DNA of 64,000 nt from Candidatus Micrarchaeota archaeon. Lineage in GTDB: Archaea > Micrarchaeota > Micrarchaeia > Anstonellales > Bilamarchaeaceae. A program made the translations under genes and the position numbers. Below are positions 27,237 through 61,300 of this stretch, in pieces. The notes beneath the pieces are model-generated. The model searched no databases. It was not told the origin of the DNA and was given only the letters and a program-made list of their open reading frames with translations. Every line of letters starts with the position of its first letter. Position 1 is the stretch's first letter. The stretch is from contig CAZKHX010000002.1 in the NCBI GenBank assembly GCA_964552755.1, forward strand, positions 4,775 through 68,774, written 5' to 3'.

Positions 27237-27809
27237 TCAGACCCTCCTTCCCCTTCTCCCCCCCTTCCTCTTCATGGAATCGGTAGGCACCGGGGTTACG
27301 TCCTCTATCTTGCCCACCCGCATCCTCGCCCTTGCGACGGTCCTCACGACCGCCTGTGCGCCGCCTCCCGGGGTCTTTGACCTGTTGCCCCCGGGCGCGC
27401 GTATGCGTATGTGCACTGTGTCGACCCCCTTTTCCCTGAGGTCGTTCACAACCTTGAGCGCGGCCTGCATCGCCGCGTATGGCTTCCCTTCCTCGCGGGA
27501 GCTCTTCACCATCGCGCCGCCGCTTGCCCATGAAAGGGTCTCTGCGCCGCTGACATCGGTTGCGGTGATGATGGTGTCGTTCTTTGAAGAATATACGTGC
27601 ACGACTGCGATTTTGCCCTTCTTCTTTGGCTTCTTCTCCTCCGCGGCAGGCGCTTCCGCCCCCTCCTTCTTTTCAGGGGGCGTCCCTTCGGCTTTCGCCG
27701 CGGGCTTCTCCCCTGTTTTTGGGGCCGGCTCCTCTTTTGCCCCAGCCGCGGGCTTCTCCTTCACTTCAGCCGCCTTCTCTTCCTTTTCGGGTTTCTCTTC
27801 CTTTGCCAT
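27237..27809 (-). CDS. rps11: 30S ribosomal protein S11 (uS11) with about 60-aa K/E/A/P-rich N-terminal extension
   Basis: Core [32 protein letters not shown]...[18 protein letters not shown]...[10 protein letters not shown]. Extension [31 protein letters not shown]... Confidence 0.9.
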
Positions 27810-27817
27810 GTTCCCAC

Positions 27818-28552
27818 CTATGCGGCCTCCGCCTTGGCTCCTTCCTTCTTCTCCTCAGGAGGCTTCTCCGCCTTCTCGCCTTTTGGCCCTTCGGCCGGCT
27901 TTTCCTCCTTCTTTTCAGCAGGTTTCTCCTGCCCCTCTTTCTTCTCTTCCTTGGGAGCCCCCTTCCCGCCTTCAGCAGGCGCCTCCCCCTTTGCCTCCGC
28001 AGGCGCGGCCTCGGCAGGCTTTGCCCCTGCCGGGGCTTCCGCCTCTTCTTCCTCTTCCTTCTCGGAGATTGCGAGGTCTATCGGCTTGTAGTATGCAATC
28101 AGTGCATCCTCTGCAGCGGTGACAAGGTAACTTGGGGTGGAAACTTTCCTGTCCCCTACTGCAATGAACCCGTGGGTGATGAGCTGCCTTGCCTGCTTCA
28201 TGCTCTTCGAAAGTCCCTTCCTGTAGACGCGGCTCTGCAGCCTCCTCTCAAGCACGTCGCGCGCGGTAAGCGAAAGCACGTCTTCCACTTTCGAGCCCTG
28301 CTTGAGGATGTCGAGGCGCGCAAGCTTTGCCATGAGCGTTTCCTCATCGCCCCTCCGTTCCTCCTCGGTAAGCGAGAGCAGCCTCCTGGCCTCGCGCCTC
28401 ACCTTCTTGAGCTCCTGCACCATGACCCAGAGCTCCCTCATGCTCTTGAGGCCAAACTCGGTCTTGAGAGCGCCTTCCTCCTTGATGCGCTCCTTGGTCC
28501 AGAGCTTCTTGGGGTTTTCATACTTGTTGGTGAACTTCCGCGGGTCTCCCAT
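27818..28552 (-). CDS. rps4: 30S ribosomal protein S4 (uS4) with about 80-aa E/K/A/P-rich C-terminal extension
   Basis: [18 protein letters not shown]..., and S4 domain [25 protein letters not shown]. Tail [25 protein letters not shown]...[11 protein letters not shown]. Confidence 0.9.
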
Positions 28553-28560
28553 TCAAACAC

Positions 28561-29175
28561 CTATTTCTTCTCCTTCTTCTCCGCGGGCTTGGATTCTGCG
28601 CCCCCTGCGGACTTGGCCGCCGCGGCCTGCTGCTGCAGGGACTTCCTGAGGACACCGAGGGCCATGCCCTTCCTGCCCGTATTCTTTGTCCTCTGGCCCC
28701 TCACCTTCTGGCCGTATGCGTGCCTGTAACCCTTCCAGGTGTAGAGCTTCTTCTCCTTTTCGATGTCCTGGCGGATTGCGAAAATGAGGTCGTTCATGAT
28801 AACGTGCACATCCTCCCCCGAGTCGAAGTCCTTCTGCCTGTTTAGCAGGAATTTCGGCACATCGCGCTTGTGGATGGAAGTGAGTATGGCATCAATCTTC
28901 TCAATCTGCTCGTCCGAGAAGCTGCCGGACTTCGTATCCGGGCCGATTCCCAGCTCCTGGGAAATGACTTCAGAGGCCACCTTTGCAGTGGTGTGGCCGA
29001 AGCCGCGCACCCTGAGGAGCGCCCTCTTGAGCGGCACGTGGCCCTTTATGTCCTTGCCTGCAATCCTGACTATCCCCCTGAGGCTCTCGTCAATCTCCTC
29101 TCCCTTCCTGGGCTTTCCCTTGGGGGCGCCCTTCACGGGCTCTTCCTTCTTTGGAGCTTTTGCTTTCTTTGCCAA
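28561..29175 (-). CDS. rps13: 30S ribosomal protein S13 (uS13) with basic N- and C-terminal extensions
   Basis: IVRIAGKDIKGHVPLKRALLRVRGFG..., YRHAYGQKVRGQRTKNTGR. TTG start 4 nt after GGTGAT. Confidence 0.9.
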   Translation of the reverse strand: MAKKAKAPKKEEPVKGAPKGKPRKGEEIDESLRGIVRIAGKDIKGHVPLKRALLRVRGFGHTTAKVASEVISQELGIGPDTKSGSFSDEQIEKIDAILTSIHKRDVPKFLLNRQKDFDSGEDVHVIMNDLIFAIRQDIEKEKKLYTWKGYRHAYGQKVRGQRTKNTGRKGMALGVLRKSLQQQAAAAKSAGGAESKPAEKKEKK

Positions 29176-30521: not shown

Positions 30522-30545
30522 TGAGAAAAAGCGAGGTAGGCCTAA

Positions 30546-30566
30546 GGGTTTTTCATGAAAGTTTTT
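30546..30566 (+). terminator. Oligo-T runs downstream of the 29358-30521 gene
   Basis: gggttttt and agttttt within 45 nt after the stop. Confidence 0.35.
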
Positions 30567-30615
30567 CAGTCGCTCCGCTTCAACCCGACAACAAGTTGTC
30601 AGTGCCCTAGGTACG
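30566..30615. repeat. Family-A short structured repeat, copy A1 (noncoding)
   Basis: TCAGTCGCTCC core (30566-30576), CAAC, hairpin GACAAC-aa-GTTGTC (30587-30600), AGTGCCC. Bracketed by the 11-nt direct repeat CTAAGGGTTTT at 30542-30552 and 30618-30628. Confidence 0.6.
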
Positions 30616-30618
30616 TCT

Positions 30619-30670
30619 AAGGGTTTTGCGCTGCTGCTTTTGCCCGCAGAAGACAGCGGGACAAAAGCGG
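30619..30670. repeat. Family-B structured repeat, copy B1 (abuts the tRNA-Ser 3' end)
   Basis: AAGGGTTTTGCGC, then hairpin GCTTTTGCCCGC (30636-30647) / GCGGGaCAAAAGC (30656-30668). About 79 percent identical to the reverse complement of 46118-46170 by hand alignment. Confidence 0.6.
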
Positions 30671-37561: not shown

Positions 37562-38110
37562 TCACTTCTCCTTCTTCACTCGCCCTTTGGGCTCAGCCGC
37601 CTTCAGTCGCTCCCGCCCCAACAGGACAGCTTCGCTGTCCTTCGGCTCCAACGCGCCAGGCCGCTGTCGCTCAGCTGCCTTCCCCTCCACTTCCCTGAGC
37701 ATTCCGTTGTCCTCAAGGTAGGTGTGGAGGGCCTTCTTCCCCCTGAAGGAGCCGCCTTTCACCTTCAGGTACATGAACCTCCTGTCCTCAGGGCCGATTT
37801 CGCCCTTCTTCGCGAGATCTTCGAGGTACTTCCTCTGCGCGCGCACCTTCTCCATCCAGGCCTCCTTCTTTGGCTTCCTGGAATGCTTGGTGCCCTTCCT
37901 GCTCCCGCGGGAGCGCTTCCTCCCCGCCGGCTTCTTGCGGGGGCCCTTCTTCGGCAGCGCGTAGACCGCGCCGTCCGCAATCAGCCCGCGCACGTCCTCG
38001 CGCGTGAGCGCTTCCTCTGCGCGGCCGAGCTCCCCTTCCTTTATGCGCACCCTGCTCTCGCCAATCCCGAGCAGGTCCGCTGCAAGCCTTTTCACCGTCT
38101 TGGCGGTCAT
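37562..38110 (-). CDS. rpl19e: 50S ribosomal protein L19e (eL19) whose C-terminal tail includes repeat copy A2
   Basis: KRLAADLLGIGESRVRI..., RKGTKHSRKPKKEAWMEKVRAQRKYL. Tail ...AERQRPGALEPKDSEAVLLGRERLKAAEPKGRVKKEK. Confidence 0.9.
   Translation of the reverse strand: MTAKTVKRLAADLLGIGESRVRIKEGELGRAEEALTREDVRGLIADGAVYALPKKGPRKKPAGRKRSRGSRKGTKHSRKPKKEAWMEKVRAQRKYLEDLAKKGEIGPEDRRFMYLKVKGGSFRGKKALHTYLEDNGMLREVEGKAAERQRPGALEPKDSEAVLLGRERLKAAEPKGRVKKEK
37591..37703. repeat. Family-A repeat, copy A2 (in frame inside rpl19e)
   Basis: 37598-37675 matches 43163-43240 at 75 of 78 positions without gaps. Core TCAGTCGCTCC at 37603-37613. Hairpin GGACAGC-ttc-GCTGTCC at 37624-37640. Confidence 0.8.
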
Positions 38111-38580
38111 GCTGTCACCTTTTGCTTCTCCTCAGGGGGAGCCGACTTCTCCTTCGGCTCTTCCGCCTTCTTTGGCCCCTCATCTTTGGGCTTTTCCTTG
38201 GGCACCTTCATTTTTTTCTCCTCGACCTCCGCGCCCCTTTTATTAGTAACCTTGAGCTTGAGCTCCGCGGCCTTCTTCTCGATTTCCGCGCGCTTCTTCT
38301 TCCCCACCCCTCCGGCAATCCTCACCAGCTTGCCGGCCGCGGCTTCGAGCTCCGCGAGGTTGTTCACGAGCGCCTCCTCGAGCCCGGTGGGGTGCTTCCC
38401 GCGCAGCGCCTTGGGGTTCCCGTAGCCCACGCGCGGGCATGCGCCGTGCGAGGCCTTCCTTATCCTCTTCTTGTTGTCGACCCCGCGCGGCCTGCGCCAC
38501 CTCTTCTTCACCTTCCCCTTGCCTTTTTTGCCCCCTGAATTCGGGACATTGAATTTCGGGTGCGATTTCCTTTCAGCCAT
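38107..38580 (-). CDS. rpl32e: 50S ribosomal protein L32e (eL32) with K/E/P-rich C-terminal tail
   Basis: MAERKSHPKFNVPNSGGKKGKGKVKKRWRRPRGVDNKKR. ATG 38580 lies 6 nt after GAGGTG. ORF-track start 38691 runs through rpl6. Confidence 0.88.
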   Translation of the reverse strand: MAERKSHPKFNVPNSGGKKGKGKVKKRWRRPRGVDNKKRIRKASHGACPRVGYGNPKALRGKHPTGLEEALVNNLAELEAAAGKLVRIAGGVGKKKRAEIEKKAAELKLKVTNKRGAEVEEKKMKVPKEKPKDEGPKKAEEPKEKSAPPEEKQKVTA

Positions 38581-38585
38581 GAGCA

Positions 38586-39089
38586 TCACCTCTCCATATA
38601 TATGCCGTCCTGGAATATCCTGACGTCCTTCTTGCGCACCTTGGTCGCCTCGCGGATGTTCGCCGCGGTCTGTCCGACGTCTTCCTTGCACATCCCGGTG
38701 ACAGAGACGTCCTGCCCCTTCACCTGCACCTTGCAGCTGCCCTGCACCGAAGCCCTCCGCGGGTTCTTCTCGCCGAGGAAGTTCTTGATGAGCACCTCAT
38801 CGCCCTTCACCTCGAGGGTTATCGGAAAGTGCGCGTACTTTATCACGAGCTTTTTCTCAAAGCCATCGGTGACTCCCTTTGCCATGAGCTTCACGTGCGC
38901 GCGCACGGTCCCTTCCATCGCCCTGCTCTTCGCGCTCACGGCAAGCTTGTTCCCCTCGAGCCTGAGTTCCACGGGCGTGCCCCTGAACTCCCTTTCCACC
39001 TCGCCCTGCTTGCCCTTGAGCCTGAGGGTGTTCCCGGAAAGGGACGCTTCGATTCCTTCTGGGATTTCAACAGTTATCATGCTTACCAC
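38586..39089 (-). CDS. rpl6: 50S ribosomal protein L6 (uL6)
   Basis: VEIPEGIEASLSGNTLRLKGKQGEVEREF... Two-domain uL6 pattern. Operon position. Confidence 0.9.
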   Translation of the reverse strand: MVSMITVEIPEGIEASLSGNTLRLKGKQGEVEREFRGTPVELRLEGNKLAVSAKSRAMEGTVRAHVKLMAKGVTDGFEKKLVIKYAHFPITLEVKGDEVLIKNFLGEKNPRRASVQGSCKVQVKGQDVSVTGMCKEDVGQTAANIREATKVRKKDVRIFQDGIYMER

Positions 39090-43039: not shown

Positions 43040-43906
43040 CTACATCTTCTTGGGCGGGTCCCTCCTCTTCGGCCTCTCCCTTGGCTTCGGCGCCCTCACG
43101 GGCTTCTGTGCCTTGCCCTTCTTCGCGTCCTTCTTTTCCTCCTCTTCCTTCCCCGCTTCAGTCGCCTTCAGTCGCTCCCGCTCCAACAGGACAGCTTCGC
43201 TGTCCTTCGGCTCCAACGCGCCAGGCTCCTGTCGCTCAGCCGGCTCCTCCCCCTTCACTTCCGCCTTCGGAACCTTTTTTGGAGCTTCAGGTGCCTTTGC
43301 CTCAGCCGGCTTCTCGGCCTTTGGCGCTTCCGGCGCCTTCTTCACCTCAGGTGCAGGCGCTTTCACTTCAGGTTTCGCCGCTTCCTTTGGTTTCTCTGCC
43401 GAGGCCTTAACCTCAGGCTTCTTCACTTCCGCCCTTGGCTTTATCGCCGGCCTTTTCGCGCCCTCCTTCTCCTTGAGCACGATTTCCACGCGCGCGGTCT
43501 CGAACCTCTGCGCCGAGCGCCTCCCCTTTGCCGCAAGCCGTGGGTAGGAGTTCTTCTTGTTCGCGCACGCATGCTCCACGACCAGCTCCTCGCTGAGCCC
43601 CTTCGCCTGCGCGTTCGCGAGCGCGCTCTTCAGCACCTTGAGCACGATGCGGGAGCACTTCTTCGGCCAGCGGCCCTTCCTGCCGCCGAGCTCCCTGCGG
43701 TGCGCCATGCGCTTGTTGTGCCCCCTGAACCTGAGGGGGATTTCACCCTTCTCGGCTTTCTCCAGCAGGTCAACCGCCCAGTTCGCATTCCGGCTGCGGA
43801 TGTTGCCGCAGACCTCCGCAAGGTCCTTGAAGGATGCGTTGACGTTCTCTGCACGCGCAAACGCGAAATCCGCTTCCTTCCCTTTTGGTATGTCGTAGGA
43901 GTACAT
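43040..43906 (-). CDS. rpl22: 50S ribosomal protein L22 (uL22) with about 130-aa K/E/A/P-rich C-terminal extension containing repeat copy A3
   Basis: Core ARAENVNASFKDLAEVCGNIRSRNANWAVDLLEK...VVEHACANKKNSYPR. Extension ...KKPEVKASAEKPKEAAKPEVKAPAPEVKK...AERQEPGALEPKDSEAVLLERERLKA... Confidence 0.9.
   Translation of the reverse strand: MYSYDIPKGKEADFAFARAENVNASFKDLAEVCGNIRSRNANWAVDLLEKAEKGEIPLRFRGHNKRMAHRRELGGRKGRWPKKCSRIVLKVLKSALANAQAKGLSEELVVEHACANKKNSYPRLAAKGRRSAQRFETARVEIVLKEKEGAKRPAIKPRAEVKKPEVKASAEKPKEAAKPEVKAPAPEVKKAPEAPKAEKPAEAKAPEAPKKVPKAEVKGEEPAERQEPGALEPKDSEAVLLERERLKATEAGKEEEEKKDAKKGKAQKPVRAPKPRERPKRRDPPKKM
43155..43265. repeat. Family-A repeat, copy A3 (in frame inside rpl22)
   Basis: Perfect 10-nt tandem CTTCAGTCGC x2 (43156-43175). 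Core at 43168-43178. Hairpin at 43189-43205. 75 of 78 identity to copy A2. Confidence 0.8.
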
Positions 43907-46102: not shown

Positions 46103-46195
46103 TCACACCTTCGATTGCCCGCTTTTGTCTTTCGTCCTGCTTCGGGCAAAAGCAGGCGCGCAAAACCCTGAGGAACAACAATTCTTCCCGTCCAT
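46103..46195 (-). CDS. Possible 30-aa micro-ORF created by the junction duplication
   Basis: MDGKNCCSSGFCAPAFARSRTKDKSGQSKV*. It uses the duplicated rpl4 SD and ATG and ends at the duplicated rpl3 stop. Coding status is doubtful. Confidence 0.2.
   Translation of the reverse strand: MDGKNCCSSGFCAPAFARSRTKDKSGQSKV
46118..46170. repeat. Family-B structured repeat, copy B2 (inside the rpl3-rpl4 insert, opposite orientation to B1)
   Basis: Minus strand reads CAGGGTTTTGCGCGCCTGCTTTTGCCCGAAGCAGG...GACAAAAGCGGGC. CCTGCTT/AAGCAGG stem. Confidence 0.6.
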
Positions 46196-46198
46196 CCG

Positions 46199-47146
46199 TC
46201 ACACCTTCGATTCCAGAGATACGCCGGTCAGCTTCGGTTCTCCCGCAGCGCCCTTGCGCACGCCGAGCCTGAAGCGCACAAGTCTCTTCACCGGCCCCGG
46301 GACTGAGCCCCGTATCAGCACGTATTCGTTCTTCACGAACCCGTAGCGCGGGAATCCGCCCTTCGGGTTGACTTCGTCAATGTTGCCGCTTATCTTCATG
46401 ATGCGCTTGTTCAGCTCGGTGCGCTTGTGGTACCCGGTCTGGCCGGGCCTCGGTATCGTGTAGAAGATGTATCCGGGCTTGAACTGGCCCATGCACCCGA
46501 TGTGCCTCCTCTTGCCCGTTGCCTTGGGCCTCTGCAGGCCGGTGCCGAATCTTTTCACGGTCCCCTGCCAGCCCTTGCCCTTGGTAACCGAAATCACGTC
46601 AACGAACTCGCCGGGCCTGAACACTTCCGAAGCCCTGAGCTCCTTGCCGAGCATGCCCTTTGCGAATTCGATTTTTGCGGCCGCGTCCGCGCCGCCCACG
46701 CGGAGCTCCATCCTCTCTGCGTGCTTCTTGCCTATGCCGGTCTTCTCCGGCTGGGCATAAACGAGCAGCGCGACTTCCTCGCACCCGTCCGCCTTCGCCT
46801 CCTTGGCGGTTTTCTTCTTGCGGACGCCAATCCTCTTGAGCACGTCCTCCTTTTCTATGAGCACTTCGCCGCTGCACTTCCTCCCCGAGTACGTCCTTAT
46901 CCCGTAAACCATGAGGGGCGGCACTTCTATCACTGTCACCGCGGTGGAAATCTCCTGCCCCTTCGCAGGGCCCTCGATGTCCTCCACGTAGTGGATGTGC
47001 GTCATCCCCGCCTTGTAACCTGCGAGGCCGAGCACCCTTCCTTCACCTGAGGGCGCCCAGTAATTGATGGTGGGCATCTGCTTCCGTGCCCGCTTCCTTG
47101 GCCTGTATGCTAGAGAACCCTTTCTGGGTTTCAGTATGTCCGTCAT
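46199..47146 (-). CDS. rpl3: 50S ribosomal protein L3 (uL3)
   Basis: MTDILKPRKGSLAYRPRKRA...WQGTVKRFG. ATG 47146 lies 5 nt after AGGTG. ORF-track GTG 47173 lacks an SD. Confidence 0.9.
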   Translation of the reverse strand: MTDILKPRKGSLAYRPRKRARKQMPTINYWAPSGEGRVLGLAGYKAGMTHIHYVEDIEGPAKGQEISTAVTVIEVPPLMVYGIRTYSGRKCSGEVLIEKEDVLKRIGVRKKKTAKEAKADGCEEVALLVYAQPEKTGIGKKHAERMELRVGGADAAAKIEFAKGMLGKELRASEVFRPGEFVDVISVTKGKGWQGTVKRFGTGLQRPKATGKRRHIGCMGQFKPGYIFYTIPRPGQTGYHKRTELNKRIMKISGNIDEVNPKGGFPRYGFVKNEYVLIRGSVPGPVKRLVRFRLGVRKGAAGEPKLTGVSLESKV

Positions 47147-47286
47147 GTAGACACCTATTGTGTTGCCCTCCACCGCGGAGGGGCACTTTTTTCACGCCTT
47201 CCTCTCGGAAAGCATAACACTTTTCCCACGTTGCACGCCAGCCCAAAGGGCGCGCGCAGTGTGTGGCGTGGCAAAAAGGTAAAGCT

Positions 47287-47312
47287 TATTTTATGGAGGA
47301 AGGGTTTAAATA
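47287..47312 (-). promoter_or_regulatory. Two tandem TATA-like boxes upstream of the ribosomal superoperon
   Basis: Minus strand ataaaata (47287-47294) and tatttaaa (47305-47312). They imply a leader of about 120-135 nt before the rpl3 ATG. Confidence 0.35.
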
Positions 47313-47318
47313 GCTTCC

Positions 47319-47378
47319 TCAGTCGCTCCGTTGAGCTCCAACTCGCCAGCAAAGTTGGCGATCAAGTGCCCGAACGCG
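47319..47378. repeat. Family-A repeat, copy A4 (noncoding)
   Basis: Core TCAGTCGCTCC at 47319-47329, CCAAC, hairpin CGCCAGC-aaa-GTTGGCG (47344-47360), AGTGCCC at 47365-47371. Immediately 3' of the 47384-48397 gene. Confidence 0.55.
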
Positions 47379-47383
47379 AAAGG

Positions 47384-48397
47384 TCATGCCGCAGCAGCCA
47401 TTGCGCCCCTTATGCTCTCCTGCGAGCCGAGCATCTCCTGCAGCTTCGGATTCTTCTTCCCCGCTTCCTTCTCAAGCGCGGCAGTGAGCTTCTCCAGCGT
47501 CCTGAGCCGCCATTCCCTCGGAACGGAAGAAAGGTATTCTCCTATTTCCCCCAGACTGCAGGTGATGATGCAGCAGTGCTCTCCCGCCTTGGAGGCGCAC
47601 CCGGCAAGCGTTTCGAGCGCGGGAAGGCGGTCCTCCTCCCTCATGCGCTCAAGCACCATGGGCAGGCCCTTCCCAAGCCCGTTGAGCACGAAATCAATGA
47701 GGTATTCCTTGCGGCCCTTCAGGCCCCTGAGCATCTCCTCCACCTGCTTCCCGCCATAGTAATATGTGTTAATCATGTACGGGTCGTAGAAGATTGAGCG
47801 GTCGCGCGCAGCGCTTACGTAAAGCACGTCCATGCCCTGCCCGAGCTCCTTCTCGGTTACCTTGTTCACCACTTCCATGAACATGCCGGCCTTCAGCTCC
47901 ATGTGCTCCTTGTCCAGCACGAGCTCCTTCAGCAGGCGGGAAAACGAGTATTCGCCCTTCTGGCGCATCTTTTCCCATACGCGGCCCGCATCCTTTTTCG
48001 CATAGGGCGGCAGGGCCTTCATGAATGACTTCACCTTCGGCTCTTCCCTCTTTATTATGTCAATCGGGCCCTCGCTCTGCGCCGCACCCATTGCGCGCAC
48101 CGGCCGCCTCCTCTGCGGTGGAAGCTTCGCATGCCTCACGTCCCTGGCCTCTGTGTGCTCTGCGGCCGCTGAAACAACAAGGGAGTCAATCTTCTCCTTG
48201 AGCTCGCGCTCCCCTTTCCTGCGGGCGTTCAGCTTTTCAGACGCGTCAGCCAGCGTGAGCAGCGTTGCGGTGCGCGAAAAGGAGAAATCATGCACGTGCA
48301 CGAGCTCCGCGAGTATCTCGTCCACTTCTGCCGCGTGCTCTGCCTCAAGCGCGCTCAGCTTCACCCTCTTCAGGTCCGCGGCCGGGATTCCCTTCAT
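47384..48397 (-). CDS. Hypothetical protein (337 aa), no recognisable family
   Basis: ORF-track entry. Leaderless ATG 27.5 nt from a TATA box. Coding-like composition. No motifs recognised. Confidence 0.55.
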   Translation of the reverse strand: MKGIPAADLKRVKLSALEAEHAAEVDEILAELVHVHDFSFSRTATLLTLADASEKLNARRKGERELKEKIDSLVVSAAAEHTEARDVRHAKLPPQRRRPVRAMGAAQSEGPIDIIKREEPKVKSFMKALPPYAKKDAGRVWEKMRQKGEYSFSRLLKELVLDKEHMELKAGMFMEVVNKVTEKELGQGMDVLYVSAARDRSIFYDPYMINTYYYGGKQVEEMLRGLKGRKEYLIDFVLNGLGKGLPMVLERMREEDRLPALETLAGCASKAGEHCCIITCSLGEIGEYLSSVPREWRLRTLEKLTAALEKEAGKKNPKLQEMLGSQESIRGAMAAAA

Positions 48398-52388: not shown

Positions 52389-55300
52389 CTAATCCAATTC
52401 CACCCAGAACTCCACCACTCCGCTCACGCCTTTGTAGGTGCTCAGGTTCGCGGGCACCCTTATCTCGTAATCATAGGGTGCACTAGTGTTCACCGCGGTA
52501 ATGAAGGCAACGTCCTGGTTTGCAGTTGTATTGAACTGCGGCCAGCCCTGCGAGGCGTCCCATGTTATGCCGGTGTCGAAGGTGCTGTTCTGCGTCGTGG
52601 AATTCGCCTCGGGAACCCACGGGACGAAGTGCCTGAACAGGGTCATGTTTTCCGTGCGCTTCGGCGTGCTTCCATCGGTAGAGTAGGTAATGTTTATGTT
52701 GTCCGGCTCCGCGCTGTAGCCCAGCAAAGTATCAAGCTCAACAAAGTCATTGTTCGAAGGAGCCCCTGCATCGGTGCGGCCCAGCGCGGTGAGGTTTATC
52801 CACTGCACGTTCGCGTCGCCGTTTATCACGTACACGTTGCCTTCATTGCCGTTCCACAGCCATGAATAAAAGATGTCCACGCTATTGGGCGCAAGGAGCA
52901 GCGAGCCGTTTACGTCCCCGTAGAAGTAATGCCATATCTCGGTGCAGCGATAGGTGCACCCCCCGTGGCCGCTTTCGCTCCAGGAGCTCCAGGAGTCGCA
53001 GGAGTCCTGCGCGCCCGCGTTGGAGGGCCCGAGGTTGTCCACGTCGAAGCCGTTGAAGCACACCTGGTTGGAATACAGGCCTGCCCCGCCGCTGTCCGCG
53101 CTGAACCGGATTCCGCCGATTGTATTGTTGGTGATGTTGGAGAACACAAAGATGCTGTCGTCCGAATCCGAAAGGTAGAGGCCATGGTCGCTGTTGCCGG
53201 ACACCCTTGAGAGATTGAGCGTGGTGTTTTGCGCGTCGTCAAACTGCACGCCGTGGCCGTCGTTTCCGCACATGTCCGAATCGTTTATGTAGATGTATTC
53301 CGTGTGGTGCAGCCGTATCCCGTACTGGTGGTTGTAGCAGAACGTGGAGCCGGTTATGTTGACCCTGTCGGAATTCACGATGTGCAGGCCGTGGCCATTG
53401 TTGCCGCTTGCATTGATATTCTCGAACACTGCATCATGGCAGTTGTTCAGGTTGACGCCGTTCCCGTTGTTGTTCTTGAAATTGGAGGGGTCTATGAACA
53501 GATTTGAAGAGTAATCTCCCGTAAATCCGTCCACGGAGTTGTTATATGCACTCACGTTGATGAAATCGTTGTCCGGAGAATTATCTATGTAGAAACCCGA
53601 CTGGCTGTTGTTATGCGAGAAGCTGTCCATTATGGTATTGTTGTAGGAATTCGAAAGGTAAACTCCCGAATCGGAATTGTTGTATGCGAGCAATCCGGAT
53701 ATGTTGTTGTAATCCGAATTATCCAGGTGCAGGCCGTCTATGGAATTGTTGTGGGCCAGGTCGCCCCCCATCGAATTATTGTCTGAATAAATGAGGTATA
53801 TCCCGAAATAGGAGTTGTTGTATGCGCTGTTGTTCCCCAGCGCATTCCCAGAGCTCGTGTTTATGAAGAAGCCGGGCGCGGGGTTGTCCCGGGCGGAGTT
53901 GCCCCAGAGGATGTTGTAGTCGCTCAGCACCAATACGAATCCGGGCGAGGCCGGGCTGCCGTATTCCGTGTTGGCCGTGAGATTGTTGAAATCGCTGGCT
54001 GCGAGCGTGAACCCTGGCGAGCTGGTGTTGTGCGCAGTGTTGAGGGCGAGGGTGTTGTTGTGGCTCGAGTCCACGTAGAACCCGTTTTGCACGTTGTATG
54101 CGCTGTTGTTCGTAAGGTTGTTCCAGTTCGATTTCGAGAACAGGGCGAAGCCGTCCTGGGAGCAGTTGAATGCGATATTGTTGGCAAGCGCGTTGTGCGT
54201 CGCATTCGCGCCGAGCCGGAATCCATAGTTGTTGCGGTATGCCGTGTTGTCCTCCAGCACGTTGCCGTGCGAGTCCTGCAGTAAGAAGCCGTTCAGCGAA
54301 TTGTTGTATGCCTGGTTCCCTGTGAAGCGGTTGCCGCTTGCGTTGGCCTGCAGGAAGAAGCCGAAGAGGGAATTGTTGTAGGCCCCATTCCCGGTGAAGT
54401 TGTTGAGCGCGCAATCCTCGCCTATCTGGAGGCCCGCCGCCCCGTTGCCGTGCAAGCTGTTGTTGGTGAGGGAATTGCCGCTGGAGCGGTTGAACAGGTA
54501 GATGCCGCTGCCCGTGTTCCCGGATACGGAATTGTTTGTGATCATGTTGCCCGAGCTCAGCTCGAAATAGCAGCCGAAGTAGCTGCCGGAAATACTGTTG
54601 TTCCTGAGCGTAGTGCCGTTGCTCGAGCTGGAGTAGAAGCCCACGGTCGGATTGCCGTACGCAACGTTGTCGGCGAAAGTGTTGCTGGCGCTTCCCTCGG
54701 TTACGGCGAAGCCGAACTGGTTTCCGGACACCCTATTGCCGCCCAAGTAGTTGCCGCTGCTGCCCTGCACTACGATGAAGCCGAACTGGGCATTGCCGCT
54801 GGCGGTGTTATTGGTGAAGTTGTTGCCGTGGCCCTGCGCGATGCCGAAGCCCATGGAGTTATTCCTGGCAGTATTGTTGTAGAGCATGCTTCCGTTGCTG
54901 GCGAACACTCCGATGCCGAGGGTGTAGTTGGAAATGCCCGGGCAGTTCCTCACCGTCACGTTCGTGAGCGAGCCATTGAGCAGGACGCCCGCCGAGCCAA
55001 CGCTTGCGGTTCCGTTATCGGTTATGTTGTATCCGTTGCAGTCGAAAACAACGTTTGATACAGTGATTTTCACGCACGTGTAGTTCACCGGGTCCGGCGA
55101 GAGGGGCGCCGCGTCATTGGGCGCGCCCACGTAATTCTGCGGCTGCAGGTATGTGCCGGGCGAGGATATCACCGGGCAGTTGTCCAATCCGCCCTGCAGT
55201 ATCCCGTAATCGGACGCAGGATTCATATTCGTAAGGGACAATTCATTTGCGGCTATGTTCGGAGTGCTGTTCAGCATCGCCCAGCTTCCATTCCATCTCC

Positions 55301-58300
55301 AAAGCTCGAATTCCGTTTCATCATATCCCGGCAGTTCTGAGTCCAGCCAGTGCCATGTTATGGAATCGATGCTTACCGCCCCCGACCGGTTAGTTATATT
55401 CACCCATTTTTCCCTGAATGATATGCGGCCCGTTGGAAGTCCTGAAGAATTGGCCGTCCAGTTGATTGAATATGCGGTGTTTGCTTCTATGCTATCCTCA
55501 ATTGAAAGAGAGGTGTAGTTCTGGAAACCGCCCAATGGGTTGTCTATTGTCATATTGTAGAGATAAACGGGTCTGGCTGCTGCGTCGGTGGCAACATAGA
55601 AATCGCCCAGGTTATTGCCATAGAAATGCATATTTGTAACATTCGTCCTGTTTGCCCGGTCGATGTACAGGCCATACTGGATATTGTTGTATGCGGTGTT
55701 GTCGGTAAGGTTGTTGTAATCAGAGCTGGCAATTATGTTAAAACCATGCTGGAGGTTATCGCGGGCCGTGTTGTCGATAAAATTATTGTCGGAGCTTCCG
55801 GACAGATAGAATCCGTAAAGGTTTGCGTATCCTGTGTTATTGGTAAGATTATTGTTGTTGCTGTATTGCAGGAAGAACCCGTCCCCATTGCCGTATGCGA
55901 TATTATCCGCCAGAGTGCTCCTGTTGCTTGAACTCAGGTAAAAGCCGTTTTGTATATTGCCATATACGGTATTATTCACAAAAGCATTGAAATTGGCGGA
56001 AATAACCGCGAATCCGTGCTGGGAATTGTTCGAAACATTGTTGTAGGAAAAATTGTTCGCAGGGCCGCTTAGGTGAATGCCCGTATTCGTATTGTTGTAA
56101 ACGCTATTGTTTTCGAAGATGCTGTCCGAAACCGGATTGAGATACAATCCATATGTATTGTTGTAAACGGTATTGTTCACGAGGCGCAGGTTTTTGGAGG
56201 AGCCTATCAGGTAGAATCCGTAAGTCATATTGTAAATCCTGTTGTTGCTCATGTTGCTGTAGGCGATGTCCGCGCTTCCCACGCCCAGTATCGCGTCGTC
56301 CATTATGTTGTCTTCGATAGTCACGTTCCTGCAGTAGTCGCACCGCACCCCCAAGTCCACCATACTTATGTTGTTTCCTATCACCCTCGCCATGGTATTG
56401 TTGGGCATGTCTATGCCGTCGTTTGCAAATGCGTCCAGCATTCCGGTAGTTACGCCCTCCCCTATGTTGTTGTATGCGATATAGCTCCCGAAAGAAACGT
56501 AGTTGAATATCGCGTCATCATCACCGTTCAGCAGCGAATTATATGATATGTTCACATAATCCGAATCCCTTCCGGTTATGGTGTCCCCCATGTTCCAGTC
56601 CATGGTGTTGTTGTATATCGTAGTGTAGTCGCTGTCATAATGCGCTATTCCGTATCCCGTGTTGTTGGAAATATTGTTGCTTGAAATGAAGCTGTCCGAG
56701 GATTCGTTTACGAAGAACCCGTTTGTATTCCCGCATACCGTGTTTCCCGTGAAATTGTTTCTGCTTGCATTTACATGGAGGTAGAATCCGTAACCGCCCG
56801 CTCCCATGAACTCGGTTATGTTGCAGGCATTGTTATTGATGAACGAGTTGTGCATCGATTGGTTGTAAATCCTGAACCCGTAGTTCGTGCTGTTCGTAAC
56901 GCTGTTGTTCCTGTATATGTTGTAAGAGCTGTTGTGGAAAAGCTGGTATCCCGGGAAGCATGATGCGGCCATGTTGTCGCTGACATTGTTGTAGGAACTG
57001 CCCCATATCCTCAGCCCCCGCGCAGTGTTGTCGTGCATGTAATTCCCGGTTATGGTGCTGAAATGGCTTGAGAGCAGCATGATGGCGTCAAAAGTTATGT
57101 TCGTAAGGGTGTTGTTGGCTATGTTCGTGTAATTCGATTCATAGACATATACTCCGAATACGTAATCCGCTATCCTACCGCAGTTTTTCACCGTAACGTT
57201 GGTAAGGGAGCCGTTGAGCAGCACCCCGTAAGTCATCCCTGCGGTCCCGTTGTCCGTTATGTTGTAGCCGCCGCAGTCCAATACGACGTCCGATGCGGCT
57301 ATCTTGATGCATGCCGAATCGGCAAGCGGGGATGCATTTATCGGCGCCCCTTCCAGGTCCGCATTGAGGGAATAGCTTCCTGATGAATTTATTATGCCGC
57401 ATACCGATGTTTCATTCCCGAGTATCGTATAATCGCTTGCAGGGTTCATGTTTCTCAGGCCTAATGTATTTGCTGCTATGTCCGGAGTGCTGTTCAGCAC
57501 CGTCCAACCGCTTGCATTATGCTTCCACAATGACAGCCGGCTTTCGTCATGCCCCGCAACCTCAGAATCCAGCCAGTGCCAGGTTATGGCATCTACTGCT
57601 ACCAGCCCGCTCAGGTTTGCTATCTCTACGAATTTCTGGTTGAATGAGGAATGGAGCGGAGGCAGGGCGCTTGAGTTTGAGGTCCAGTTTATGAAATACG
57701 ACGAAGGCGAAACAGCATCGTAAATGTCCAGAACGGTATAATTCTCCAGGGTTCCGGACGGATTGGCGAATGTCATGTTTGTCGCATTGCAGACAATGTT
57801 CCCTGCAAGAAGGTTGCTTACGTGGAAGTCGTATCCATTGTTGTAAAGCATGATGTTCTCATAGTTAGTGTTGTTGGTATCGGACAATCTTATGCCGTAT
57901 GCATTGCCGTATGAACTGCTGTTGGCTATATTCACACCATCCGAACTTTCCAGGATGTAGAAGCCCGCAACATCATTATCATAGGTGGTTACGTTCGCTA
58001 CGTTGGTAAATGTGCTCCCGCTGTCGATTCTTATTCCGGAATCGCTGTTGTTGTAGGTAACCATGCTCCTTATCGTGGTACTGCCGGAATCCTGCACTCT
58101 CACTCCGCGCAGGTTGTCATGGCTGAGCGCATCGATTATGCTGTTGTTGCCGGACAGCCTTATCCTGAACCCTGCAACACTGGAGCCCGCTGAATACGCG
58201 CTGCAGCTTATCATCCTGTTGTTGTCCGAGCCGGAATTCATATAGAATCCCTGGCTGTTCATGTATGCGGTGTTATTGTAGAATAAGTTGCCCGAGCTGC

Positions 58301-61300
58301 CTGCAGAATAGAATCCCTGTGCAGCATTGTCGTATGCAAAATTTTGGGTGAAATTGTTGTTGTCCGAGCCCGCCAGGATTTCAAAGCCCCTTGCACTGCT
58401 GTCATGCACGCTGTTATTGTAGAAAGTGCTGTTGTCCACGTTGTTAAGGCCTACCGCATCCGTGAAATTGGATATGTTGCAGTGCTTAAGCGTAATGTTG
58501 TTTGCGCCGTAGGTATAAACTCCGAATCCGGTGGCATTTCCCATTATCCTGTACCCGCCGCAGTCCAGCACCAGGTTGTCAACACCCATCTGGAAGCAGG
58601 TTCCATTCGAATAAACGTCGTTAACCAGCGTTGCATTCTTTATGAGGTTTCCGCAGGTGTATGGGACGGTGTAATCGACAGTGCTGGTATTGGAGCCGTT
58701 TGCGTTTTCAACATAGCAGGTTATGCTCACGATTCCGAAATCGTAATCCATGTCCGCAGTTACGTTTTCAACGTTCGTTTCATAATCCACGTACCTGTAT
58801 CCGTCCGAATGCGTTATGTTGAGGTATTTGCTTAACGGCGCCTCGCCGCTGCTGTAGCTCCAGTTCACCCACTGCGTATCCCCGAAATTAACCGGGTCGA
58901 GATAATCGTCAATGCTGCACGAAGGGGCCTCAACGTAAATCTCCCATTCCGATTCGTTTATCGTGTTGTTTGCATATCCTGGCTTGGAACAGCTGTAGTT
59001 CATGTAATACGTCCCGCTCCTGAACCCGTATGCAATCGGCCTTCCCGAGCTGTAAAGCCCGGTTGTTGAATTGTAGCTCATGTTTACCGGATAGCCCTTT
59101 GCCTCGAGCCTTACGAGGTCCTGCCCTTCCGTGGTAACCGCGCTCCAGTTTCTCTTGCCTGCAGAAGAATTCAGTGAAACATAATTGGCAGTATAATCCG
59201 CATCAATGTCCTTCGCTATCTTCCAGACGTCCTGGTTGACGTTTTCCACGATTTCTTCTCCGGTAAGCGCCCTGTCAAGTATCCTTACTTCATCTACTGA
59301 ACCGTCGAAAAGGTTTCCTATCCCCGCGTCGTTCGCACCTATGACAAGCGGGGCAGTGCCGTTGTAAATCGTAGAGCCGTTCATCCCGGTCCCCGATGCC
59401 TGGAGGTCCCCGTCCATGTAAAGCTTCATGTATTCCCCGTCGAAAGTTCCCGCGACGTGCACCCATTCCCCTACGGGAACGCTGTCAAGCGATACTATGG
59501 TATATCCCCCTCCGGCGGTTCCGTCGTTGTTCAGGTAGAATGCAAGCTGGTTGCCGGCGGTTATCGCCATTGCCCAGCTCCTCTGGTTCGTGCATGTGCC
59601 TGAAAAAGCAGGCCCGCAGTTCGCTCCGGTTGCCCCGAATTTGCTTATGAAAACCCTCAGCGTTCCCGTATCCGCGGGCTGGTAGACAAGCGCCTCCACC
59701 GTAAGGTTGTCAGGGGTGTCCAAAACGCCGGAGCCGTCATCCGCAGCCCTGAGGCTCGCATTGGTCCCCGTGAAATTCATCGAGTTGTTTATCCAGCCCG
59801 GTGAAACGGTTACGTTCCTCGTTGAATTGACATCATCCACGAATTCGCTCATGTTCAGGCCGTTTGCCGATTCGTCAATGGTGTAATTCGTTCCCCATAT
59901 GTCCGTGAAGTTGTCGAGATGATACAATGCAACGAGATTGGCAGAATACTGGCCGGGGCCGTAGGGTGTTTTCCTTATCGTGAAATTGCAGTCCGGGCAG
60001 CTGTAAGCGAACTGCATATTGACTATGAACGGATTTCCCAGGGAAGCGAGAAGGTTGTTGTATGCAGTTATGTTCACGTCCATGCGCATCCATTCGAAAT
60101 CGTCCTGCACCCCGAAATAGGCATCCGCATCAGAACAGCTGGTCTGGCCCAGGAAAATGCAGTAGGTGCTCTCATTGGTAAGGTTCAGGTTGCTGTTGTC
60201 CGCGCCCGCACTGGTGTTCAGGTAGTTAAGGCAGAAATCAACCGTTATGTTATTGCTCGTTCCCGGATAGCATTTCATTTTGCCGTAGCCCTTTATGGTC
60301 TGCATTCCCGAGTATACGTTGTCAAACGAGTAAAGGTGCTGCCTCGGCCCCGCTATCGTGACATCGGTATCCACAGCATCGTTTCCGTAATAGTAAACCG
60401 GAATGGGGATGCTGTCGGCATATGTGCACGTCCCGTCGGAATTTATCGGGCTCCCCGTTGAATTGGTGTAATTGCAGAAATACATCTGGTAGTCCCCGAC
60501 CTTCACCCTGTTCGGCATCTCCCAGCATGTAAGGTTGGTGGTGCTGTTGGAGTTTCCGAATATTCCGTAGTCGGATGCAGGGTTGAGATTGCTGAGCCCG
60601 AGGGTATGCAATGAAGTGTCCGGAGAATCGTTCATCAAAGCCCAGGATGAATTGTATCTCCATAGTTCAAGCTCGGACTCTATATAGCCCTCGAGTTCCG
60701 GAACGGTCCAGTGCCAGTTTATGCGGTCTATGCTCACCGTTCCGCCCAAAGCAGTTATGTTGATATTCTTGCCCCTGAAGGAAATCTTTCCCGGAGGAAC
60801 GCCCAAGGAGGGGGTCCAGTTTATTGAATATGCGCTTGAAGCGGAAACGTAATCTGATATGGAAAGATTTGTGTAGTATGAGCGGTCCCCTTCCGGCCTG
60901 TCGAATATAAGCGAATCCATGTCGAGAAGGGCGGGCATCCCAAGCGTGTTGTTCACAGCGAAATCGATTGAATTGCTGTGCGTGCTCGAATTCGTTATCA
61001 GCGTATTGTTTGAATTATAAATGTAAATTCCGTAAAGCGAATTATTGCAGGCCACCGAATCGTTTATCACCGTTCCGTTGGAGCCGGAGACGTTTATCCC
61101 GATTGTGTTGCCGCAGAAATAGGACGGGTCTATGTCCGCATCATCCGAATCTAGGACGATTATCCCGCTCCCGGTGTTTGAATTGGAAGCGGCATTTGTT
61201 ATTTTCACGGAGCTTGACCCGTTTATGAATATTCCCGAGTAATTGGCACCGGTAATTGCATCCGAATCGGAGAGGTGGCTTCCCCCTCCGGAGATTTCAA

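Follow-up and report, generated by a model that had tools for sequence, protein, structure and literature searches.

Rickettsia is the textbook case of an oddity in which palindromic repeats colonise essential genes in frame. Palindrome-associated elements derived from IS200/IS605, and the elements of the REP/RAYT type, have a conserved hairpin and a fixed short target and leave no regular duplication; REPs are normally extragenic. The Rickettsia palindromic elements (RPEs) are repeats that are found either between genes or in frame within unrelated genes (Ogata et al., 2000; summary in PMC10969869). In the literature searched we found no report of colonisation by palindromic repeats in archaea or in ribosomal proteins.

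The DNA analysed here is a stretch of 64,000 nt, referred to as the window, which together with 9.4 kb of upstream sequence amounts to 74 kb. Its genes for the ribosomal proteins eL19 and uL22 share a segment that is probably, though with a good deal of doubt, a recent lineage-specific in-frame insertion. It would derive from a small family of repeats that is defined at the nucleotide level and works in the manner of RPEs or in-frame MITEs. According to the sequence-only reading, the two proteins had recruited as coding sequence either a structured repeat or the product of a recent gene conversion. As far as lineage specificity, the presence of a hairpin and the existence of noncoding relatives are concerned, this proposal is supported by the data described below.

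Genomic setting and host proteins

The closest homologues of uL22 and eL19 were annotated as Candidatus Micrarchaeota, and the window is chromosomal DNA of an archaeon of the Micrarchaeota (DPANN). It carries a classical archaeal ribosomal protein operon on the minus strand, which extends from uL3 (46199-47173) to uL15 and SecY in the canonical order. The other genes have housekeeping functions (PolB, gyrase, Rad50, CCA-adding enzyme, transketolase), apart from one encoding a beta-helix protein of 3865 aa. This giant ORF (52389-63986, minus strand) comprises 14 right-handed beta-helix/NosD stretches and two LamG domains, and most of the other direct repeats of the window fall within it. It probably encodes one of the surface proteins that are typical of DPANN archaea.

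The two host proteins, eL19 and uL22, are unrelated. Pfam assigned them to their respective families with scores above the gathering score in every case (57.8 bits for PF01280 and 73.2 bits for PF25476 in eL19, 59.2 bits for PF00237 in uL22; Table 1). The eL19 fold ends at about aa 135-140 and leaves a tail of aa 141-182; the AlphaFold2 pLDDT was above 90 up to about aa 140 and about 50 beyond. The fold of uL22 extends to about aa 150 and is followed by a tail of about 140 aa rich in Lys, Glu, Pro and Ala, for which pLDDT values of 44-73 and a single low-confidence helix at 236-262 were obtained. Both insertions lie in these Lys/Glu-rich, low-confidence tails, beyond the Pfam domains (ending at aa 135 and aa 144, respectively), and according to the models the tails are likely to be disordered. 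Among the homologues found, the length of uL22 varied from 158 to 313 aa and that of eL19 from 140 to 231 aa. Long extensions rich in Lys, Glu, Ala and Pro occur in uS11, uS4, uS13, eL32 and uL22 (27237-29175, 38107-38691, 43040-43500). The uL22 tail showed about 67-76% nucleotide identity to the sister populations introduced below; for their gene bodies the value was above 93%.

Table 1. Positions of host genes, shared blocks, hairpins and members of the repeat family (window coordinates unless a contig is named)
Feature	Position	Strand	Basis
eL19 gene, 182 aa	37562..38110	-	ORF list; Pfam PF01280 + PF25476 over aa 4-135
Long-form block in eL19, 75 nt homologous to the uL22 insertion	37593..37667	-	D7, 75/78 identity, translation
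99-nt stretch of eL19 absent from sister population L011	37575..37673	-	Alignment A6
Perfect hairpin in the eL19 copy (stem of 7 bp, loop of 3 nt)	37624..37640		Sequence, fold, covariance-model alignment
uL22 gene, 288 aa	43040..43906	-	ORF list; Pfam PF00237 over aa 17-144
Long-form block in uL22, clean 75-nt in-frame insertion	43158..43232	-	Three-way alignment A2 with L001 and L002; D7
Hairpin of the uL22 copy, perfect	43189..43205		Sequence, fold, covariance-model alignment
Perfect tandem duplication of 10 nt, GCGACTGAAG twice in the coding sense	43156..43175		TRF; alignment A2
Noncoding short-form member (47.3-kb copy)	47317..47367	-	Covariance model, 59 bits
Noncoding short-form member (30.5-kb copy)	30565..30616	-	Held-out covariance model, 23.5 bits, E=1.4e-4
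Short coding member in L002 uL22	L002:2516-2564	sense	Other site, near tail start

The segment shared by eL19 and uL22

The ungapped match from which the analysis departs, 75 identical positions out of 78 between 37598-37675 and 43163-43240, was reproduced exactly. The ungapped repeat reaches 96 nt at 91% identity (37593-37688 against 43158-43253; repeat family D7), and 42 nt are the same in both copies without exception (37619-37660 and 43184-43225), where none would be expected in shuffled sequence. As had also been stated, both copies use one and the same reading frame, and the encoded sequence AERQ(R/E)PGALEPKDSEAVLL(G/E)RERLKA corresponds to aa 146-171 of eL19 and aa 223-248 of uL22. This peptide of 26 aa, including GALEPKDSEAVLL(G/E)R, is presumably translated. 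The eL19 block encodes most of AERQRPGALEPKDSEAVLLGRERLKA. The longer stretch of 99 nt in eL19 consists of the 75-nt block and about 21-24 nt (PKGRVKK) that have no counterpart in uL22; the shared block supplies 26 of the approximately 47 residues of the eL19 tail and no more.

Each copy contains the perfect hairpin GGACAGC-TTC-GCTGTCC noted earlier. The 10-nt tandem repeat (CTTCAGTCGC twice) fared less uniformly, being perfect in the uL22 copy and degenerate in the eL19 copy. The second copy of GCGACTGAAG in uL22 corresponds to GCAACTGAAG or CGGCTGAAG, which are native to the relatives (alignment A2). Weaker similarity over about 110 nt is indeed present, upstream in the coding sense. This flank is not clearly part of the repeat because it resembles the native tails of relatives about as much as it resembles the other copy.

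Only one of the three frames on the sense strand of the block is free of TGA, since CTGA motifs occupy two phases; on the antisense strand all three are open. Three of the 26 shared codons differ (four nucleotides), each of them nonsynonymously. These differences are too few for a selection test, but they give no hint that the peptide is under purifying selection.

The core which had been seen to recur outside the two genes, the 11-mer TCAGTCGCTCC, occurs four times in the window (30566, 37603, 43168 and 47319) against 0.05 occurrences expected. Those at 30566 and 47319 lie between genes.

Assembly support and empty sites in sister populations

The exact eL19 protein of 182 aa was present on 17 contigs, eight of which were retrieved (four JGI, four ENA). 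All eight contained the identical eL19 repeat, and three of them also spanned the uL22 copy. Both copies are thus borne by independent JGI and ENA assemblies, each with its own copy-specific bases. This effectively disposes of the suspicion of a chimera: the repeat pair is not an assembly artefact. In Logan and in another JGI project the neighbouring region was unchanged in further samples. Look-ups with the exact proteins revealed filled sites in all assemblies and no presence/absence polymorphism within the species.

Empty sites were found in two sister populations. Over 42.5-51.7 kb one of them (L001/L196, ENA ERZ27256772) has 95-98% identity to the window; for the other (L002/L011, SAMN12687858) the identity is 90-96%. 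The uL22 genes of L001 and L002 lack exactly the 75 nt of the block, with a boundary ambiguity of 4 nt (CTGA), and the flanking gene body is 93-98% identical. The eL19 protein of L011 has 149 aa, ends in ...MLKEVKEKKAEEK and is without the 99 nt. The eL19 proteins P0121 and P0200 end in ...NGMLKEVKEKKAEEK.

The peptide also proved not to be ancestral: among 200 uL22 and eL19 homologues the motif LEP...RLK was confined to the window proteins and P0003 (L002). A full HMMER search of 1.84 billion representative proteins with the 34-aa peptide gave no match, so that a piece of some known domain can be discounted as its origin. The representatives of the 50% clusters may be free of the insert and so hide other carriers of the peptide. 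A 56-aa tandem of both peptide versions matched nothing in an index of 5.8 billion proteins, the source proteins included, as the word index is too coarse. From these alignments we conclude that the block is a recent lineage-specific insertion in both genes.

Two features of the L001/L196 contig (k141_1699942) are worth recording. It is a mosaic, with 95-98% identity to the window over 42.5-51.7 kb and about 74% over 33-42.4 kb, the switch lying inside uS3/uL29. Either lineages of Micrarchaeota have recombined within the ribosomal operon, or the metagenome contig is chimeric. The uL3 leader (47174-47316, 140 nt) is 100% identical between the window and L001 and contains a TTTAAA box, although differences of 2-5% are seen in the genes on either side. 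Its conservation may reflect a promoter or leader function, or an RNA that regulates the operon.

A family of small hairpin-bearing units

The family unit is smaller than the 78-mer of the sequence-only reading, consisting of a hairpin and the box GTTGRRGC located beside GCGACTGA. In the sense direction a stem of 6-7 bp with a loop of 2-3 nt is followed by 1-2 nt, GTTGRRGC, 3-8 nt and then GCGACTGA. The roughly 95 kb available from three related populations contain five members: two long coding, one short coding and two noncoding copies. Each of the five is on the transcribed strand and is situated at, or close to, the 3' end of a gene.

The 47.3-kb copy begins 17 nt past the stop codon of ORF 47384-48397, upstream of uL3. 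It is composed of GCACTTGAT, the hairpin CGCCAAC-TTT-GCTGGCG, A, GTTGGAGC, TCAACGGA and GCGACTGA, in this order, and was also found at 12 further loci (L003, L004, L204-L213). From L001 43 nt of this region (47325-47367) are absent. The intergenic flanks are otherwise identical, and L001 keeps CGG joined to GCGACTGAGG, including GCGACTGA. The difference is either an insertion in the window lineage or a deletion in L001.

The 30.5-kb copy lies downstream of tRNA-Ser and has the order GGGCACT, hairpin GACAAC-TT-GTTGTC, GG, GTTGAAGC, GGA and GCGACTGA. It is bracketed by two copies of the 11-mer CTAAGGGTTTT (30542-30552 and 30617-30627), which are exactly 75 nt apart, a spacing equal to the length of the coding insertion. 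The pair might represent a target-site duplication, or else coincide by chance with the point at which a neighbouring hairpin family ends. A second hairpin repeat family is in fact represented at 30617-30670 and 46119-46172 and reads AGGGTTTTGCG...CTTTTGCCCG-loop-CGGGACAAAAGCGG. One of its copies abuts the 3' end of tRNA-Ser and the other is situated in the uL3-uL4 spacer in the opposite orientation; in the same spacer of L001 (L001:6590-6660) there is a homologous hairpin with an altered stem.

The short coding member occupies a different site in the uL22 gene of L002. It is read in the same frame as the long copies, as TASKAGRLEPEGRLKAEV. The pattern GTTGRRGC-N0-14-GSGACTGA matched only the four window copies and L002:2539, always on the sense strand.

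The stems of the family are GCCAGC/GCTGGC, GACAGC/GCTGTC, GACAAC/GTTGTC and GCCAAC/GCTGGC, the last with one mismatch. In an alignment of four sequences 96% of the hairpin cells were paired, compared with 21-46% for slid partners, and two of the seven pairs change on both sides. That the hairpins seem to vary in sequence yet remain paired is suggestive, but with four sequences it is not proof. Perfect hairpins of 6 bp start at 0.12% of the window positions.

The relationship of the noncoding copies to the coding ones, which had been proposed on the basis of the common core, has statistical support both from the TCAGTCGCTCC counts and from a covariance model. Built without the 30.5-kb copy, the model recovered this copy with the score given in Table 1, the background reaching at most 13.5 bits. 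The stricter pattern GTTGRRGC-N0-6-GGAGCGACTGAR, which leaves out the L002-type member (GGGCGACTGA), had 64 matches in 596 Gb of genomes; all were in unrelated bacteria and correspond to chance level, the source genome being outside the collection. At 64 matches per 596 Gb, the four in one 64-kb window are not due to chance even when the post hoc design of the pattern is allowed for. Among the matches listed for metagenome contigs (at least 118 loci) none matched the window by BLAST, and scans of viral contigs (IMG/VR) gave nothing relevant. Four of the listed matches, from metagenomes of the same sampling project (L118, L132/L183 and L175; Ga0180432, Ga0180438), fall in a pentapeptide-repeat-like gene of another organism (...GTCGTTGGGGCAGGAGCGACTGAACCTGCGCGGAGCGGACCTG...); we judged them to be due to chance.

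Junctions, ends and proposed nesting

GCGACTGA behaves as flank or target rather than as part of the indel, because L001 keeps it without the 43 nt. A junction directly 5' of GCGACTGA was seen three times: in the 47.3-kb copy compared with the empty site of L001, in the nested inner unit of the long block, and in ENA contig L203. This contig (1280-1345, approximately window 30565-30620) follows the 30.5-kb copy as far as ...GTTGAAGCGGA (...GGGTTGAAGCGGA) and then continues with the unrelated TACGTTGGCCCCATAGC. The JGI contig L005 begins one base before the junction of the 47.3-kb copy with GCGACTGA (L005:1 = window 47327). Taken together, these cases point to a recurrent breakpoint between GGA and GCGACTGA. 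Contig ends at element junctions suggest a structural variant or further repeat copies at these places.

On our reading of the alignment the long block seems to be made up of two units, one nested in the other. The outer unit is a short unit of the L002 type, ...GTTGGAGCC-GAAGG followed by GCGACTGAAGG, with a decayed hairpin. The inner unit consists of the intact hairpin-CT-GTTGGAGC-GGGA and lies directly 5' of GCGACTGA.

The long copies are flanked by direct repeats of CTGA or GCTGAG (4-6 nt) and the 30.5-kb copy by direct repeats of 11 nt; the 47.3-kb copy has none. A target-site duplication of fixed length, as expected of MITEs, was thus not found across the window copies. The long block folds as an imperfect extended hairpin; judged by eye, its ends match as inverted repeats at 7/8 positions in eL19 and 6/8 in uL22. 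The short units had no terminal inverted repeats, and in this small sample the left ends of the family members are not conserved.

Origin of the insertions and alternative explanations

How might the same block have entered two unrelated genes? The composite would have been made up of an outer unit with a decayed hairpin, like the short copy in L002 uL22, and an inner unit nested directly 5' of GCGACTGA. It would have formed once, and a copy would then have reached the second gene across 5.5 kb of the operon that contains both. A single origin is indicated by the architecture, which is identical in both genes including three 10-mers of GCGACNGNAG. The copying could have taken place either by transposition of the composite or by ectopic conversion between natively similar tracts coding for Lys and Glu. 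Homology-assisted conversion is as plausible as transposition, because the native tails at the two sites are already similar (...EVKEEKATE/AEKEEEE in uL22 and ...EVKEKKAE/EK in eL19). By eye, the upstream flank of eL19 shows 5/24 differences to its own orthologue and 4/24 differences plus an indel of 3 nt to uL22. Being no closer to uL22 than to the orthologue, this flank was rejected as proof of a conversion from uL22 to eL19.

It might be asked how an essential gene can tolerate such an event. The explanation may lie in the position and the composition of the insert: the low-confidence tails are outside the ribosome-binding folds, the length is a multiple of three and the sense strand has a single frame free of TGA. 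An in-frame insert of this kind in a low-confidence tail would be just what selection on an essential gene lets through, and we infer that it is nearly neutral. Mobility was presumably provided in trans by an unseen enzyme; there was no gene for a transposase, TnpA, RAYT or integrase and no cas gene in the 74 kb (window plus 9.4 kb upstream). Our best guess is an IS200/IS605-type or RAYT-type transposase that acts on single strands and recognises hairpins. A bolder version of this proposal is possible but doubtful. It assumes that a class of ultra-small mobile units (about 28-45 nt) with a single hairpin, not described before, exists in DPANN, and that these units insert site-specifically directly 5' of GCGACTGA, become nested and actively feed the expanding Lys/Glu-rich ribosomal tails with new coding sequence.

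The strongest competitor, although we consider it unlikely, is a local event. A one-off mutation in one tail would have been followed by ectopic conversion or template switching; there would be no mobile family, and the noncoding look-alikes would be unrelated. For the long copies homology-driven copying alone would suffice, as they share frame, orientation and native flanks. Their genes are 5.5 kb apart on one strand, the native tails of relatives are already alike (GAAGTGAAGGAGAAG... in both) and no further long-form copy is present elsewhere in the 74 kb. Such an event leaves the origin of the first copy unexplained, however, and it does not account for the members outside the two blocks. 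The covariance model from which the 30.5-kb copy had been left out still found it, a near-identical relative differs from the window by an indel at the 47.3-kb copy, and a sister population bears a member of different size at another site in uL22. Paired hairpins of differing sequence are likewise not a product of recent local copying.

A selected cis-element is less probable still. The hairpin and box could act as RNA in the processing or stability of the operon mRNA or serve as a binding site, or the peptide motif itself could be under selection. The location of every member on the transcribed strand at or near gene 3' ends would fit such a function, as would the maintenance of the hairpin by compensatory change, but close relatives do without the element at those sites and their operons are intact. 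The folding energies are divided: compared with shuffled sequence, folding is somewhat more stable for the long blocks (z about -2) but not for the short copies (z -0.5 and -0.9). Rfam searches, at the gathering score and then at E<=10, returned only tRNA and noise. As for a selected peptide, the exclusively nonsynonymous codon differences in the 26-codon core and the lack of a match among the 1.84 billion representative proteins argue against it. A C/D-box sRNA was considered separately and ruled out because there is no C box.

Haloarchaeal type I-B CRISPR repeats end in GGGTTGAAGC. The units of 31-37 nt with the order GGGCACT...hairpin...GTTGRAGC bring to mind class 1 repeats with their hairpin and 8-nt handle. 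It is nevertheless very improbable that they are solitary CRISPR-like repeat units, scattered by the adaptation machinery or acting as crRNA-like regulators: the window has no array or regular spacing, the 74 kb contain no cas genes, the CRISPR-DR families of Rfam were unmatched even at E<=10, and units lie inside coding sequence. Hardly credible is a chimeric assembly, or an intron of the bulge-helix-bulge type whose splicing would prevent the peptide from being made; the segment is structured, its length is a multiple of three and some contigs break near family members, but eight contigs reproduce the eL19 copy, three of them also the uL22 copy, with copy-specific bases kept, and an exhaustive geometric search around the four window copies found no hBHBh' motif (both splice sites in 3-nt bulges, 4 bp apart) with flanking helices for excision of 75, 78, 96, 99 or 102 nt.

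Significance and comparison with known systems

If the shared block is an in-frame insertion from a small repeat family, as we prefer to think, repeat DNA can supply new peptide to essential archaeal proteins, much as in Rickettsia. The event would have been caught early, since empty sites persist in sister populations and a third insertion is present elsewhere in the uL22 gene of a neighbouring population. Should the family be widespread in the genome, it would offer a concrete mutational mechanism for the fast growth of ribosomal tails in DPANN and a tractable system in which to study how ribosomes tolerate additions or come to use them. Were the proposal of ultra-small mobile units true, repeat DNA would directly build ribosomal protein extensions in a reduced genome.

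The insertions resemble the lineage-specific Lys/Glu-rich extensions of ribosomal proteins in that they occurred in tails already variable in length among Micrarchaeota through indels. Unlike the products of ordinary tail drift, they consist of a discrete block that is not of low complexity and is common to two unrelated proteins at 96% nucleotide identity.

With the IS200/IS605-derived elements and REP/RAYT the family may share the retention of the hairpin, an insertion point beside a fixed short sequence (three junctions 5' of GCGACTGA) with no regular duplication, and the occurrence of five out of five copies on one strand, which is a small sample. It differs from IS200/IS605 in having one hairpin per unit instead of separate left-end and right-end hairpins, and no TnpA or RAYT gene is encoded in the 74 kb.

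Like MITEs (ERIC, BOX and Correia-type; PMC10969869), the units are small, non-autonomous and multicopy, contain a hairpin or palindrome and vary in presence between close relatives. In contrast to MITEs they lack clear terminal inverted repeats and a consistent target-site duplication, and there is no parent IS in the 74 kb. Because target-site duplication is not regular and terminal inverted repeats are weak, we classify the family as working like RPEs or in-frame MITEs and not as a member of a named family.

The RPEs remain the closest parallel. The Micrarchaeota elements differ from them in size (43-75 nt compared with about 100-150 bp), in being archaeal, in their location in probably disordered ribosomal-protein tails, in a junction that may be site-specific and in their number of five copies. 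Two members are noncoding and three are coding, the latter all in one frame, as would be expected of an RPE-like class. As with RPEs, copies occur both between genes and in frame within unrelated essential genes, where the host protein would gain a conserved peptide and stay intact, and the host is a host-associated organism with a reduced genome. This likeness concerns the way of working and not membership, as sequence homology across domains is not to be expected.
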